Source: Nitrosopumilus sp.
GTDB taxonomy: Archaea; Thermoproteota; Nitrososphaeria; Nitrososphaerales; Nitrosopumilaceae
Reading direction: 5' to 3'
NCBI GenBank assembly: GCA_965219345.1
Contig: OZ244732.1
Location: 1,216,001-1,280,000 of the forward strand
Length of the DNA stretch: 64,000 nt
Every line of letters begins with the position of its first letter. Position 1 is the stretch's first letter. Positions 2,938 through 19,660 of this stretch are shown piece after piece. Below the pieces are notes generated by a model. That model ran no database searches. It saw only the letters and a program-made list of their open reading frames with translations, and was not told the DNA's origin. A program made the position numbers and the translations under genes.

Positions 2938-4056
2938 TTACTCAGCAGCCGTACTGAGTGAGGCGTTTTGGATTATGGTTTTCCACTTGTTAACCCCATC
3001 AACCTCAATGAGTGATGCTTCCGCAGGGGTCTTGCCTTTGAGTGCAGAGTGCTTCTTGGTATAGTTGTAATAGACTCTCATGCCATCCAGTATGGCTGTG
3101 TCCATTTTCTTCAGGCCTCTAAAGACTTTCTCACGGTCACGGATTTCAGAATTTAACCTCTCTTGCTTGTTGTTATTGTCTTCGTCTCGTTTCCCAGCCA
3201 GGTGAATGTGCTTTACGTGGTTTGTCTTTTTGCCAAAGACTTTTTTGGATGATTTGGCATAGGCTGGAAGCCCGTCAGTGATGAAGTTTCTGGGGGATTT
3301 GCCAGCTTGTTTCTTGGTCATGTCAAGGAGTGAATCCGCATTGTGCTGGAATTTGTTGTCGGCTAGGTCACTAGCCAGCCAATACCTCGTGTCATCATCC
3401 ATGCTTGCAAACAGATAGCATTGCTTTCCGTTTATCTTTATCCACATCTCATCAGCCCTGAACCAGTTGCCAACCCTAGGTACTATTCCGTTGAGGTATT
3501 CGGCAGCCAATTTGGAGTATTTGTCGACCCAGTTGTAAACGGTCTTGTGGCATACGTCTATTCCCATCATCTCATAGTGGTCGGCAATATCCCTGACTGA
3601 CATTCCTGTAAAATACATCTGTAGATCTCCGGTGATTATCTTATCGTCAAACTGTTTCTTCTCGAAGCCAAAGTTTGCTGTAAAACGTCTCTTGCAGTCA
3701 AGACACTGGAACCTCTGGACATTGCCATTCTTGGTCTGTCTTGTGCCGTTCTTCTTGATATTGCCAGAGTCACAATACTTGCAGAGTTGCAGCTTGGATC
3801 TTTCCAAGATTCTAAACATGTTGTTTCTGTAACCGCCATTTCGTCTCATCATATCCAAGACAATCTTGATGTGCTTGCAGTCTGCGTTTCTGCTGGTATG
3901 GTCTGGATACTCACATACCAGCTTCTCACCATTTGTGACTGTATAGAATTTTGTAGGATCGGTTTGTGATCTTACTTTGAATCTGTCGTGGTCAATCTGG
4001 GAGCAATAACCGCTTGTTGACATGATTTGTTTTGCACGTTCCATTCTTGGGTTCAT
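2938..4056 (-). CDS. IS6-like DDE transposase with N-terminal SWIM-like and Zn-ribbon domains
   Basis: ADEMW / ITDG / QERLN triad; CKYC..CLDC ribbon; SWIM-like motif reads CEYPDH (CECKDH in the 48 kb relic), so possibly impaired; C-terminal TPAE..NKWKTIIQN. Confidence 0.85.
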   Translation of the reverse strand: MNPRMERAKQIMSTSGYCSQIDHDRFKVRSQTDPTKFYTVTNGEKLVCEYPDHTSRNADCKHIKIVLDMMRRNGGYRNNMFRILERSKLQLCKYCDSGNIKKNGTRQTKNGNVQRFQCLDCKRRFTANFGFEKKQFDDKIITGDLQMYFTGMSVRDIADHYEMMGIDVCHKTVYNWVDKYSKLAAEYLNGIVPRVGNWFRADEMWIKINGKQCYLFASMDDDTRYWLASDLADNKFQHNADSLLDMTKKQAGKSPRNFITDGLPAYAKSSKKVFGKKTNHVKHIHLAGKRDEDNNNKQERLNSEIRDREKVFRGLKKMDTAILDGMRVYYNYTKKHSALKGKTPAEASLIEVDGVNKWKTIIQNASLSTAAE

Positions 4057-4105: not shown

Positions 4106-4191
4106 CGGCAGGAGTGGGATTTGAACCCACGATCTCGGCGAGAGACACAGATTCTGAATCTGTCGCTTTAACCTTGCTAAGCAATCCTGCC
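4106..4191 (-). tRNA. Atypical class II tRNA, anticodon CAG (nominal Leu), discriminator G73
   Basis: GGCAGGA TT GCTT AGCAAGGTTA AAGC G ACAGA TTCAGAA TCTGT GTCTCTCGCCGAGATC GTGGG TTCAAAT CCCAC TCCTGCC G; all stems pair. Confidence 0.88.
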
Positions 4192-16690: not shown

Positions 16691-16825
16691 AAGTTGTCAC
16701 TCTGGAAATCAAATTATTAAATTTACTCTTATTTTGGGAGGTGTCAAGTTATGGTGACCTGGCGAAGGGTGTCAAGTCGGTGACCTGGGTGGGATCTAAC
16801 ATCTTCGTGTGCTAGAACACACTGA

Positions 16826-17146
16826 CAGAGTCAGAACTTCTCGCTTGAAGAGGGATCCTTTACAGACAGATATCACCTGAGAATCTTCAATGGTGGTCAG
16901 GACACACACAGTGGTGGATTCAACTACTGGTCAGTCGGTGCTATACACAGAGAAAACTGTACTCCTTCATGTCACACACTGTATTCTAATGCTTGGGAAA
17001 CAGCCGAGTCACACCTAAAAAGCGATCTTAGCTCAACACTTGGCATTCTAAGTGTGGGAACAATCAATTTATCCAATTCAGGATCTTATGGTTCTCCAAC
17101 TTCATACTGGAACAATGGAATAGCAGGTAAAATCAAGGTACAGTAA
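16826..17146 (+). pseudogene. Start-less 3' gene fragment (106 codons)
   Basis: Open frame QSQNFSLEEGSFTDRYHLRIF..WSVGAIHRENC..GKIKVQ*; no start codon. Confidence 0.55.
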
Positions 17147-17226
17147 TATGCTTCCTTTTTTCTTTCTTTCACTATGAGGTTCTGCTAAGTTATGGGAATA
17201 TGAATTATCCAAATTGAATTTTGTAC

Positions 17227-18665
17227 CTATTCGGAATCAATCCTGCCGAACTTCATGCCTTCCTGGACCAAAAGTGCATTAAGTTCTGCCATGATAAGTT
17301 TTCCACCTTTTCTGCGGTTGCAGTTACCGCAAAGTAGCTGAAGATTCCCATCGTCATCAATGCCTCCCTTTGCCTTTGGCATTATGTGGTCTACTTCAAG
17401 ATCTTTGAACTGGTAGTGGTACCTGCATCCGTTGCAACAGCCTTGTTGTATACCGTATAGGGTATGTTTGATATTTTTCGATCTGTTTCCCTTTCTATTT
17501 GGTATGTCAGTTCTATGTATGACCTGCCCTGCTCCTGTGATAAATTTGGCAATGCCTGCATCCTTTCTTAGTCTTTGCTCGATTAGGGAATAGGCCCGTT
17601 CTGATATGTCACACCCTATCCATTGTCTGCCCAGTCTTTCTGCGGCCAGACATGCAGTGGCACACCCATAAAAAGGATCAAATACAATTTCACCAACACC
17701 ACTGCTACTTTCAATTATTCTTTCCAACAATGCAAGTGGTTTTTGGGTAGGATAGCCAAGTCTTTCTTCACCTTGAACATTCTGTATATCTGTCCAAATA
17801 TTCTGTAATGGTATCCCTTTTGCCTCATCAAGATATATCTTGTATCTGGGAATGCCGTTCTTGCTCTTTGGCATATGTATTCTTCCTTTTTTTTCCAATT
17901 CAAGCATTGATTCCAACGGCCTTTTCCATATTCTTACGTGTCCTTTGTACTCATATTCATATCCGCCGCCAGCCAGGCTTTCTGCGGTTAACATTATGGA
18001 ATTATACCTGCCACGTTCATCCTCGTTTCTAAAATATCTTTTAATATCCTTCTCTGAGTATGGCTTGTAGACGGCATGCCAGTTATAATTTTTTGTCTTT
18101 GTGTAAAATAATATTTGATCAGACACCTTGCCATATCTCTTTCCGTCATTATGGACGTTTGGAGTCCTTCTCCATGTAATATCATTACAAAATGATCCAG
18201 ATCCAAATATTGCATCAAGAACCAGCTTGAGATAGTGACTCATGGTAGTATCACAGTGCAGGTACAACGAACCTGTCGGTTTCAGAATCCTGTACATCTC
18301 CAAAATCCTGATTGCCATGTATATCAGATACGACATGGCAGAATCCCCGCCTATTTTTCCAGCCGTACCTATGATTGAATACAGCGGATAATTCTGTTCT
18401 GCAATTTCACCCCACCACGACGTATCAATGTCACTCAAGGTCCATGTGTCCCTGAACTCTGCACCTGCAGCCTTGGAACCGATAGGTGCCGCATAGTTAT
18501 GCTTTGAGTTGAAGGGAGGATCAAGATAGATTAAATCAACAGAATCATCTTCCATGCCCCTCATAACAGGCAGATTGTCTTTTATGAAGATTGTACGGTT
18601 TTTGATTCCATTTGATTTCGGGGGGGGGGGGCGGGCGGTGTGGGGATTCGTGCTTTTGAGGTCAT
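17227..18665 (-). CDS. N6/N4 DNA methyltransferase fused to HNH nuclease; 5' end frameshifted in G12 tract
   Basis: DLIYLDPPF, YPTQKP, DPFYGCAT; C-terminal CNGC..DHIMPKAKGG..NLQLLCGNCNRRK. Conserved NRTIFIKDNL lies upstream of the 18564 ATG. Confidence 0.85.
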
Positions 18666-18944
18666 CTTACACGTTCCTTATTCCAATATGGGGAATTGCA
18701 TTTCTTATTGTTACAGTTCTTTGGTGATTCATTTCTGCTATACCATATTTCACTGCATCTGTTACACTCATGTCTCCAATATGCACCATCTACTTTCATA
18801 CTCATATCGATACCGTAAATTCATCATTATATAATCATTTACTACATATAGCCAAAAAGTATAGTATATATGTAGGTAAAAAATATAGTATGATATGAAA
18901 TGTGTAATGATGAAAAATAAAATCAAAGGCATGGAAAAATAACT

Positions 18945-19250
18945 ACAAGGCAAAAAATCCACTTTGGAAAGACACTGAACATGTCAGACACATTCACATG
19001 AAAGGTGACAAAAACAATAATCGCGTGGAACGTTTGAACGGTACAATCAGGGACAGGGAAGTCTCATACAGGGGGATAAAGAAAATGAAGTCCACTCTTT
19101 GCAGGATTTCAGACATTCTACAATTTCTCAAAGAAGCATGGAGGTATAGGCAAAAAGACACCAGCTGAGATGGCAGATATTCTAGTTGATGGGAATAACA
19201 AGTGGAAGACCGTAATCCAAAATGCCAGTCTAAACAAAAATTACGTCTAG
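18945..19250 (+). pseudogene. C-terminal remnant of IS6-like transposase
   Basis: HVRHIHMKGDKNNNRVERLNGTIRDRE..(frameshift)..YNFSKKHGGIGKKTPAE..GNNKWKTVIQNASL, collinear with 2938-4056. Confidence 0.9.
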
Positions 19251-19416
19251 GCATAGAAACTTTTTATTTAGTAGTTTGACTAATAAAAATGGGCTTAAGT
19301 CCCTCTCTGTCTTGGTCGTTGTGGTTCGCTATCACAATATAGACAGTAAAAAATGAAGCCTTATACCCCGCATGGCATAAGGTGGATTTTTATTATTTTT
19401 AATTTTTCAAATCTTT

Positions 19417-19498
19417 GCTACGATACGCAAGCTCGGTATGCGGGGAGCCTCCTAAGCTTCTGCCATGCGGTTCGGGGGTTTAAATCCCTCTCGTAGCG
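19417..19498 (+). tRNA. Atypical tRNA, anticodon CCT (nominal Arg), with 13-nt variable arm
   Basis: GCTACGA TA CGCA AGCTCGGTA TGCG G GGAGC CTCCTAA GCTTC TGCCATGCGGTTC GGGGG TTTAAAT CCCTC TCGTAGC G. Confidence 0.8.
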
Positions 19499-19660
19499 TT
19501 GTTTTTCAATTCAGAGAAGATCCATGTTTCATTCTATATCCCCATAACTTAGCAGAACCACATTTTGAAATGGTATAATTAGATGAACTTTTTTTATTTT
19601 TTTACGAAAATGCATTATCTGCTAGCTAATATTGTTATTTATGCAAAAATCTAGTTAGTA

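Follow-up and report, generated by a model that had tools for sequence, protein, structure and literature searches.

Transfer RNAs (tRNAs) whose body speaks for one amino acid and whose anticodon speaks for another are known from bacteria, as allo-tRNAs, and from nematodes, as the nev-tRNAs reportedly described by Hamashima and co-workers in 2012. Here, we describe a tRNA gene of this kind from Nitrosopumilus sp., encoded on the forward strand at positions 19417–19498 of a 64-kb stretch of DNA (the window; G000:C1:1216001–1280000, where C1 is a contig of a 1.9-Mb genome with 36% GC). The gene lies in a cassette of the IS6 transposon family, combines a serine-type body with the anticodon CCT, and is preceded by a hairpin with a loop complementary to the tRNA's own long variable (V) arm. 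We tentatively read the two as a Ser-type miscoding tRNA restrained by its own antisense hairpin. Such a toxin/antidote-like pair, of viral origin and carried by IS6, would suit viruses and defense-laden IS cassettes; we give this proposal somewhat less than an even chance.

The allo-tRNAs (Mukai et al. 2017, PMC5389517; review PMC7609411) resemble the window tRNA in that Ser features, namely a long arm and G73, are combined with non-Ser anticodons, and in E. coli they insert Ser (PMC5389517). As far as the accessible text of these sources goes, UAU and Arg anticodons are prominent among them, transposon and toxin-antitoxin genes are their neighbors and many copies are degenerate, in all of which they are like the odd tRNAs described here. 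They differ in being bacterial and in having 8/4 or 9/3 acceptor/T helices (a 12-bp branch), whereas the window tRNA has a 7/5 arrangement and belongs to an archaeon and to viruses; no antisense partner is reported for them there, and the word “antisense” does not occur in the available text of PMC5389517. The nematode nev-tRNAs are likewise class II tRNAs with class I anticodons (Gly CCC, Ile UAU) that are charged according to the body rather than the anticodon and are expressed at a low level, but they are eukaryotic nuclear genes of Leu identity that are not located on mobile elements (PMC4033280). The same 2014 review, in its accessible part, reports no antisense partner for them, and its table gives no such tRNA for Archaea or Bacteria (PMC4033280). 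Anticodon variants of tRNA-Ser, which carry a foreign anticodon, are still serylated and are toxic, provide the premise of our reading, although the variants covered by the available text are laboratory or sporadic eukaryotic ones rather than a conserved mobile gene family (PMC9976931).

In the literature searched, we found no description of body/anticodon-mismatched tRNAs in archaea, of odd tRNAs in Nitrosopumilus or its viruses, or of a tRNA toxin with an antisense hairpin as antidote. The tRNAs with which viruses supplement the codon supply of their hosts, for instance phage tRNA-Arg(UCU), are in the examples known built like ordinary tRNAs of their isotype. The viral homologue presented below is like these in being the only tRNA of a complete virus and in fitting its commonest Arg codon, and unlike them in its class II body, its lack of A20 and its antisense hairpin. 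In toxin-antitoxin systems of types I and III, the toxin is neutralized by a small structured RNA whose gene adjoins that of the toxin, and the modules are carried on mobile and defense islands; the toxins known from these systems are proteins, whereas the toxin proposed here is a tRNA, linked to its putative antidote by complementarity and covariation. The IS6/IS26 pseudo-compound transposons and translocatable units are characterized by a DDE_Tnp_IS240 transposase, terminal inverted repeats (IRs), passenger DNA and arrays of IS fragments, but in the present case the passenger is a tRNA module located between the transposase stop and the right repeat, and the 8-bp target duplication is missing. 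A survey of thaumarchaeal mobile elements lists IS families and treats tRNA genes as integration targets, and its main text, so far as accessible, does not mention tRNA passengers (PMC6563490).

ARAGORN called tRNA(cct) at 19416–19499, one of three tRNAs in the 64-kb window, and the Rfam tRNA model RF00005 matched 19417–19498 in a 321-nt stretch with 44.9 bits (gathering score 29, E 1.3e-08, model positions 1–71). A filtered Rfam run on the whole window at the gathering threshold listed only the other two tRNAs, apparently an effect of the filter. The stretch is a real tRNA gene. Its 7/5 cloverleaf consists of the acceptor stem GCTACGA/TCGTAGC, the D stem CGCA/TGCG with the D loop AGCTCGGTA and U20 at 19437, the anticodon stem GGAGC/GCTTC with the loop CT-CCT-AA (anticodon at 19451–19453), a 13-nt variable region TGCCATGCGGTTC at 19461–19473 (3-bp stem GCC/GGT, loop ATGC), and the T stem GGGGG/CCCTC with the T loop TTTAAAT, U56 at 19481 and discriminator G73 at 19498. 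The ARAGORN drawing shows all 24 helix pairs intact, and together with the sequence it agrees in every detail with a first-pass annotation, which had noted the CT-CCT-AA loop, the 13-nt arm GCC-ATGC-GGT, U20, G73 and the T loop TTTAAAT. G18 and G19 are present at the elbow and position 56 is U, so that the set G18 G19/T54 Psi55 C56 is incomplete. Since the thermodynamic optimum (−30.4 kcal/mol, z −1.86) prefers a competing helix that replaces the D and V stems of the cloverleaf (−27.6 kcal/mol), the evidence for the cloverleaf is covariation and not folding energy. The T/A-rich spacer at 19383–19416 (forward strand), with the TATA-like TTTTTATTA about 22–30 nt before the tRNA, possibly holds its own promoter, and the upstream regions of canonical tRNA genes in this genome are similarly AT-rich. 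Oligo-T is an archaeal termination signal, and the T-run TTGTTTTT that directly follows G73 at 19499–19506 (forward strand) is likely to be the transcription stop. Two other interpretations of the stretch were rejected: a non-canonical intron in the V arm (by inspection, no more than about 8 nt are in excess, there is no bulge-helix-bulge, and both the D loop and the T arm resemble those of Ser), and a 56-codon open reading frame (ORF) from ATG 19353 through the tRNA, the frame of which is not preserved in homologues.

The tRNA and about 100 nt upstream of it form a module that was searched for with window positions 19260–19504 as BLAST query against 151 genomes of the genus. It is present in four other genomes (G202, G508, G496, G504; intact in two) and in two viral contigs, G510 and G511, which were found by a pattern from the upstream part of the module. 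The G202 copy (L074, C1:~782348–782506) has the anticodon TCG and is split by a 41-nt insert with a 33-nt direct duplication around it, which spans the anticodon stem to the V arm and resembles a recombination scar. Two copies in G508, both TCT, are intact except for A53-C61 (G508a) and degenerate with mismatches (G508b), respectively; the G496 copy has the anticodon CCT, and G504 retains only the upstream part. The contig G510 is a 17.7-kb viral fragment in which the transposase 3′ end, module and tRNA are joined in the same way as in the window (75.8% identity over 355 nt); a gene for the terminase large subunit (phrog_675, E 5.9e-14) lies nearby. The contig G511 is a 46.7-kb viral record with direct terminal repeats, rated 100% complete, whose sole tRNA is the module homologue and adjoins a tyrosine integrase gene. 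Both viral tRNAs are intact, with TCT, C56, U20 and G73. The window tRNA is derived from an archaeal virus.

In the alignment of six orthologues, standard pairs occupy 93.8% of 144 pair cells (slid controls 40–55%), and 10 of the 24 pairs have changed on both sides compared to 3.2 ± 1.4 in shuffled sets, a number reached in none of 500. Because this set shares one upstream module, these changes are later than the split from the tRNA-Ser family. For eight non-canonical class II tRNAs, part of whose covariation may predate the departure from that family, 94.8% of 192 pair cells are kept compared to 65.3% after shuffling, 95.8% of the V stem is paired, and 17 of 24 pairs have changed on both sides. 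Judged by these alignments, the cloverleaf of this lineage is kept by compensatory change; the first-pass annotation had named a lack of compensatory changes in homologues as grounds for abandoning its proposal, and they turned out to be plentiful. Pattern scans for the CCT tRNA gave no match in the genome contigs set, only the own genome among 401 genomes of the order, and true copies in the own genome (two) and G496 (one) among the 151 genomes of the genus, where seven other matches were not tRNA-like by eye; all 27 matches in metagenome contigs looked unrelated by eye, among them tmRNA-like ends and intron-bearing canonical Arg(CCT). A D-arm pattern scanned against viral contigs returned the same two contigs again and one chance match in a sequence with 59% GC.

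Several features of the body point to serine. Among host tRNAs, Ser(TGA) matches the window tRNA best (72% identity) and shares its D loop and T stem, whereas the top 14 matches include no canonical Arg tRNA. The V-arm layout (one unpaired nucleotide, stem, two unpaired) is like that of the host Ser genes and unlike that of the Leu genes, and G73 and U20 are as in Ser. Canonical tRNA-Arg(CCT) is encoded at C1 c638710–638803 (relaxed ARAGORN) with a D-loop intron of about 17 nt, A20, a 5-nt variable loop (AGGTC; TGGTC in Arg(TCT)) in place of the 13-nt arm, and a T loop in common with Arg(TCT); the window tRNA is an accessory gene, extra to this intron-bearing one. A20 is present in all four canonical host tRNA-Arg genes, whereas the window tRNA and five other aligned orthologues have U20. 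The first-pass view of a class II body that is not tRNA-Arg-like and that misses the Arg identity base A20 is thereby upheld. The genome encodes one standard seryl-tRNA synthetase (SerRS; gene at C1:~857–860 kb) with the N-terminal tRNA-binding arm that binds long variable arms. As in the allo-tRNAs, Ser identity elements are combined with a non-Ser anticodon, here CCU instead of NGA or GCU. According to the accessible text of PMC9976931, Ser identity rests on the variable arm and G73, with the anticodon ignored. As a side observation, neither ARAGORN at its default settings nor the Rfam-based genome search picked up canonical tRNA-Arg(CCT).

The second component is a hairpin at 19359–19382 (forward strand), 35–58 nt upstream of the tRNA, with the stem CCTTAT/ATAAGG, a 12-nt loop, an A-run before it and a T-run after it. 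Its loop and 3′ arm (19368–19381) are the reverse complement of tRNA positions 41–54 (19457–19470) over 14 nt (93%, repeat scan), including a perfect 10-nt match to the V arm that was reached in none of 200 shuffles. Over seven homologues, the ten loop:V-arm pairs are formed in 87.9% of 66 cells (slid controls 17–41%), and five of them have changed on both sides, which gives 11 doubly changed cells where shuffled sets give 4.0 (0 of 500). The letters of the V loop are mirrored in the hairpin from copy to copy (AUGC/GCAU, UGAC/GUCA, UUCC/GGAA, CGAUA/UAUCG, UGC/GCA). The predicted hairpin-tRNA duplex has −32.2 kcal/mol, compared to −21.0 ± 3.5 for shuffled leaders, of which 2 of 500 are as low. 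The hairpin persists where the tRNA is broken or lost (G202, G508b, G504). Pairing of hairpin and V arm is thus supported by covariation, and a hairpin that matches the tRNA's own extra arm seems to be a previously undescribed pairing.

The longest perfect complement to each tRNA was also searched for within its 130-nt upstream region. Nine odd class II tRNAs with Arg, Lys or Ile anticodons have a V-arm complement of 8–11 nt at 30–53 nt upstream: the window copy and C1:1718375 (both CCT), 334078 (TCT), 903934 (TAT), the copies in G510, G511, G508a and G496, and G405 (CTT). None of eight canonical Ser/Leu genes has one (the maximum, 6 nt, lies elsewhere), and it is also absent upstream of the CAG, G404-TAT, GAT and GAA genes. 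Since 5 of 30 canonical class I tRNAs have an upstream complement of at least 8 nt, short matches are common in this AT-rich DNA; perhaps due to chance in AT-rich DNA is also the 10-nt complement at −71 to the anticodon stem-loop of canonical tRNA-Lys(TTT) (G000:C1:294003–294077). Two further observations concern the DNA around the hairpin. Upstream of it, a block is conserved between window positions 19320–19358 and homologues (TGTGRTTYG-CTATCACAAT-A/T-AAGAC), which in two homologues contains a TGTGAT/ATCACA inverted repeat and may act as an operator or promoter. Inspected by eye for a C/D-box or H/ACA guide, the hairpin region showed neither a D box (CUGA) nor an ACA box.

From these features a mechanism can be proposed. 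The tRNA would be transcribed from its own AT-rich upstream region, end at the T-run and fold as the cloverleaf that covariation indicates. Its long arm and G73 would be read by SerRS irrespective of the anticodon, as is established in other organisms, and the default product would be a Ser-tRNA that reads AGG, i.e., a miscoding tRNA. The hairpin RNA, as a 5′ leader or as a separate short RNA, would pair loop to loop with the V arm, as the covarying letters suggest, and may thereby mask it. Masking would restrain the tRNA, and the pair would act as an RNA toxin with an RNA antidote that aids the persistence of a virus or transposon. In the window, the module is now carried along inside a 2.4-kb methylase-HNH cassette of the IS6 family, between its dead transposase and its right inverted repeat.

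Ser at AGG is, however, only one of two live readings, with the Ser-type body on one side and the anticodon history and viral codon use on the other. The tRNA may instead be a true tRNA-Arg with a class II body, derived from a tRNA-Ser(GCU)-like gene that already had C35 and U36, charged by the arginyl-tRNA synthetase (ArgRS) via the anticodon and supplying AGA/AGG to viruses and transposons as phage tRNAs do, the shortened arm lowering SerRS recognition. We regard this as unlikely but as a serious contender, and a number of points that favor it weigh at the same time against a serylated toxin. All seven module homologues have Arg anticodons (CCT in two, TCT in four, TCG in one), including a switch between the TCT/CCT and TCG codon boxes, and U33, C35, A37 and A38 are constant in all seven, with U36 in six and G36 in the TCG copy; C35 with U36 or G36 is as in canonical archaeal tRNA-Arg. 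This constancy looks like selection to read Arg codons, although the changes are few and inertia could suffice. In the complete virus G511, of which the homologue is the sole tRNA, AGA makes up 68% of the Arg codons (25.3 per 1000 vs 20.4 in the host) and is the commonest of them, and AGG and AGA encode the two catalytic Arg residues of the integrase; Ser at AGA would hurt the virus unless the tRNA was tightly held off. AGG reaches 11.2 per 1000 codons in IS6 genes, double its frequency in 586 long host ORFs (5.5), the cassette methylase has nine AGG in 445 codons, and the AGG codons of this methylase and of seven IS6 transposases fall mostly on Arg- or Lys-conserved columns and on no Ser-conserved one. 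The V arm has 13 nt compared to 15 nt in three aligned host tRNA-Ser genes, which may weaken recognition by SerRS, and at least three of the four canonical host tRNA-Arg genes (CCT, TCT, GCG) have G73 as their discriminator as well. Against the masked toxin, further, the hairpin, framed by its A-run and T-run, resembles a plain two-way terminator, and template switching at the DNA level could in principle change two inverted copies in concert. Yeast ArgRS relies on C35 and U36/G36 and not on position 20, according to the accessible text of PMC9976931.

Other observations speak against a true tRNA-Arg. No aligned member of the lineage has A20, yet all four canonical host tRNA-Arg genes do. Relatives of the same architecture carry Lys (CTT) and Ile (TAT) anticodons, and therefore three synthetases would need to accept one Ser-like body. 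An Arg acceptor would also leave the antisense hairpin without a role, and we know of no class II tRNA-Arg. As a separate matter, private recoding, in which the genes of the element would use the codon of the tRNA as Ser, was considered and rejected from the position of AGG, mostly on Arg/Lys columns and on none that is Ser-conserved, and for the elements with CAG or TAT tRNAs from transposase CTG and ATA codons on Leu/Ile-type columns.

The module lies on a mobile element. The window contains a strain-specific insert of about 2.85 kb (16737–19585) with the cassette and the tRNA. In three relatives (G467, G193, G415), window positions ~16731–16736 are joined to ~19588–19590 within about 20–25 nt (both flanks were alignable at three of the four loci examined), and because the flanks adjoin there, the ~2.85 kb including the tRNA is an insertion. 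The cassette of 2.4 kb has the terminal inverted repeats of the IS6 family of this genome. The left repeat at 17167–17205 (reverse strand; outer end GGTTCTGCTAAGTTATGGG) is a partial match to the IR profile (E 0.027), the right one at 19505–19559 (forward strand) a match with E 3.2e-14 that aligned with the repeats of four other copies, and 17167–17201 and 19536–19570 form a 35-nt pair with 89% complementarity. The passenger gene at 17227–18564 (reverse strand) encodes a 445-aa fusion of a DNA methyltransferase with an HNH nuclease (Pfam N6_N4_Mtase, E 2e-44; HNH, E 3e-12), and decayed paralogues of it adjoin other odd tRNAs (C1:1438441–1439575 and C1:333364–333840). What is left of the transposase is a 5′-truncated, frameshifted 3′ fragment at 18927–19242 (forward strand) with the last ~105 codons, which matches residues 268–325 and 323–373 of a 375-aa reference copy (Pfam PF13610) in two frames at 86–88% identity (tblastn) and was aligned with four full copies; the cassette has no intact DDE_Tnp_IS240 transposase, only residues ~268–373 with the frameshift. 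The tRNA lies between this fragment and the right repeat, where the distance from the transposase stop is ~260 nt, compared to ~10–60 nt in four full IS copies. No 8-bp target duplication was found around the cassette, the flanks CACTATGA and ACATTTTG being different.

Some side observations belong to the same segment. Inside the insert, to the left of the left repeat, lies a 106-codon open frame without start codon (16826–17146, forward strand), for which blastn found no other match in the own genome. Elsewhere in the genome, IS6 elements of 2.8–4.6 kb with 55-nt inverted repeats (C1 745195–749172, 1007879–1010720, 1033406–1036785, 1847202–1851771 and 1729074–1732317) have passenger ORFs between the left repeat and the transposase, one of which is an 842-aa ORF; several of these begin with SPPY/DPPF methylase motifs by eye.

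Whatever the lineage does, the window copy itself could be a decaying hitchhiker, a relic in a dead IS6 cassette that no longer works, which we consider improbable. The adjoining transposase is truncated and frameshifted, and among orthologues only the window copy has U56 in place of the near-universal C56, which the five other aligned homologues keep. A minor population allele (one contig, depth 20.9 vs 52.6) has C56, but C12U and G39U as well, with the 31-39 pair broken. Because the other aligned homologues and this allele have C56, U56 is derived and recent; as the first-pass annotation allowed, it may be the start of decay, and it may have weakened the window copy. Three of eight module copies elsewhere are clearly broken or lost (the G202 insertion, the G508b mismatches, G504), and G508a and G496 have one T-stem mismatch each. 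On the other hand, the 24 helix pairs, the perfect 10-nt match between hairpin and V arm, the AT-rich upstream region and the T-run are all intact in the window, and a G19-U56 wobble is still possible. The diverged paralogue C1:1718375 also has U56, because of which the base may be tolerated or even favored in this host.

A further and quite improbable explanation is that the tRNA shape serves a job other than translation, as a site for viral integrase or IS6 insertion or as a unit of RNase P/RNase Z processing and termination, the hairpin-V arm match being a DNA inverted repeat of an invertible switch or of template switching; in its favor, the viral tRNA adjoins the tyrosine integrase gene of the complete virus, in three genomes only a few nt separate IS6 ends, in either orientation, from the tRNA 3′ end, the 33-nt duplication around the 41-nt insert of G202 is scar-like, and the hairpin has the form of a two-way terminator. 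Against it, the anticodon, V and D stems are kept by compensatory change, needlessly so for processing enzymes or recombinases. A switch that often flips is at odds with the single orientation shared by all eight independent copies, and the match of the hairpin loop to the anticodon loop in class I-like relatives suggests that the hairpin pairs with RNA loops that are exposed.

The window tRNA is one of several odd tRNAs of class II length in the genome (ARAGORN and Rfam), which have anticodons other than those for Ser or Leu, or the Leu anticodon CAG together with G73, and all of which have G73: TCT at 334078, TAT at 903934 and 1038939, GAT at 951659 and 969888, CAG at 1220106 (window 4106–4191) and 1730533, and CCT in the window and at 1718375. 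Class I-like tRNAs follow just after transposase ends at 72288 (GCG), 787950 and 1438222, the latter two with 8-nt anticodon loops. Other genomes of the genus have odd tRNAs too (two TAT and one CAG in G404, CTT in G405, GAA in G401), and the two TAT genes of G404 sit 41 nt upstream of IS6 transposase genes. The first-pass annotation had placed the window tRNA among mismatched tRNAs of one transposon family, which fits the IS6 cassette and the other class II, G73 tRNAs with non-Ser anticodons that adjoin IS6 transposase genes. Most IS6 copies are without a tRNA: at 21 transposase loci from other Nitrosopumilaceae assemblies, ARAGORN called none within 2.5 kb. The class I-like tRNA 72288–72362 (GCG) has a hairpin loop with a 10-nt match to its anticodon loop (1 of 200 shuffles), and 787950 and 1438222 have a GC hairpin with a T-run upstream and 7-nt loop matches to the anticodon loop by eye, which are not significant alone. 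Thaumarchaeal viruses and IS6 transposons might share a new, RNA-only addiction or defense module. Its toxin would be a tRNA that corrupts translation, with either an Arg, Lys or Ile anticodon on a Ser-type body or an anticodon loop of 8 nt, and its antidote a small hairpin RNA from just upstream that kisses the exposed loop (the V arm as the SerRS handle in class II, the anticodon loop in the others). We consider this generalization rather unlikely as it stands.

Several observations on these and similar genes are recorded here in their own right. ARAGORN called the anticodon loops of the IS6-adjacent tRNAs C1:787950–788025 and C1:1438222–1438293 as “tcgt” and “tccg”. The tRNA(CAG) at window 4106–4191 (reverse strand), with G73 in place of the A73 of the canonical host tRNA-Leu genes, is separated by 50 nt from the intact IS6 transposase gene downstream of it (2938–4056, reverse strand). 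Its second copy, C1:1730533–1730618, is identical at 85 of 86 positions, whereas the two elements overall are only 77% alike, and the copy in G404 is 96.6% identical with unrelated flanks; both genes have TATA-like boxes of their own. Relaxed ARAGORN made eight identical “intron-bearing tRNA-His” calls at 306-nt spacing in C1 909864–912145, probably a 306-bp tandem repeat array rather than tRNAs. The metagenome contigs L033 and L039 (31–34% GC) carry unrelated class II-length tRNA-like sequences with a CCT anticodon and A73, so that other mobile genomes, too, may contain tRNAs that combine a long arm with an Arg anticodon.

The disagreement between body and anticodon that is known from bacterial allo-tRNAs and nematode nev-tRNAs is extended by this locus to archaea and archaeal viruses. 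The right end of an IS6 element and a complete viral genome provide a defined vehicle for it, and the covarying partner hairpin a handle on function, namely whether it masks the arm that is read by SerRS. Under either reading of the charging, annotation pipelines will report such genes as “tRNA-Arg” and treat them as ordinary decoders, perhaps wrongly. If Arg was accepted instead, the gene would be a class II tRNA-Arg without A20, which we did not meet in the literature, and would bear on how tRNA identity changes.

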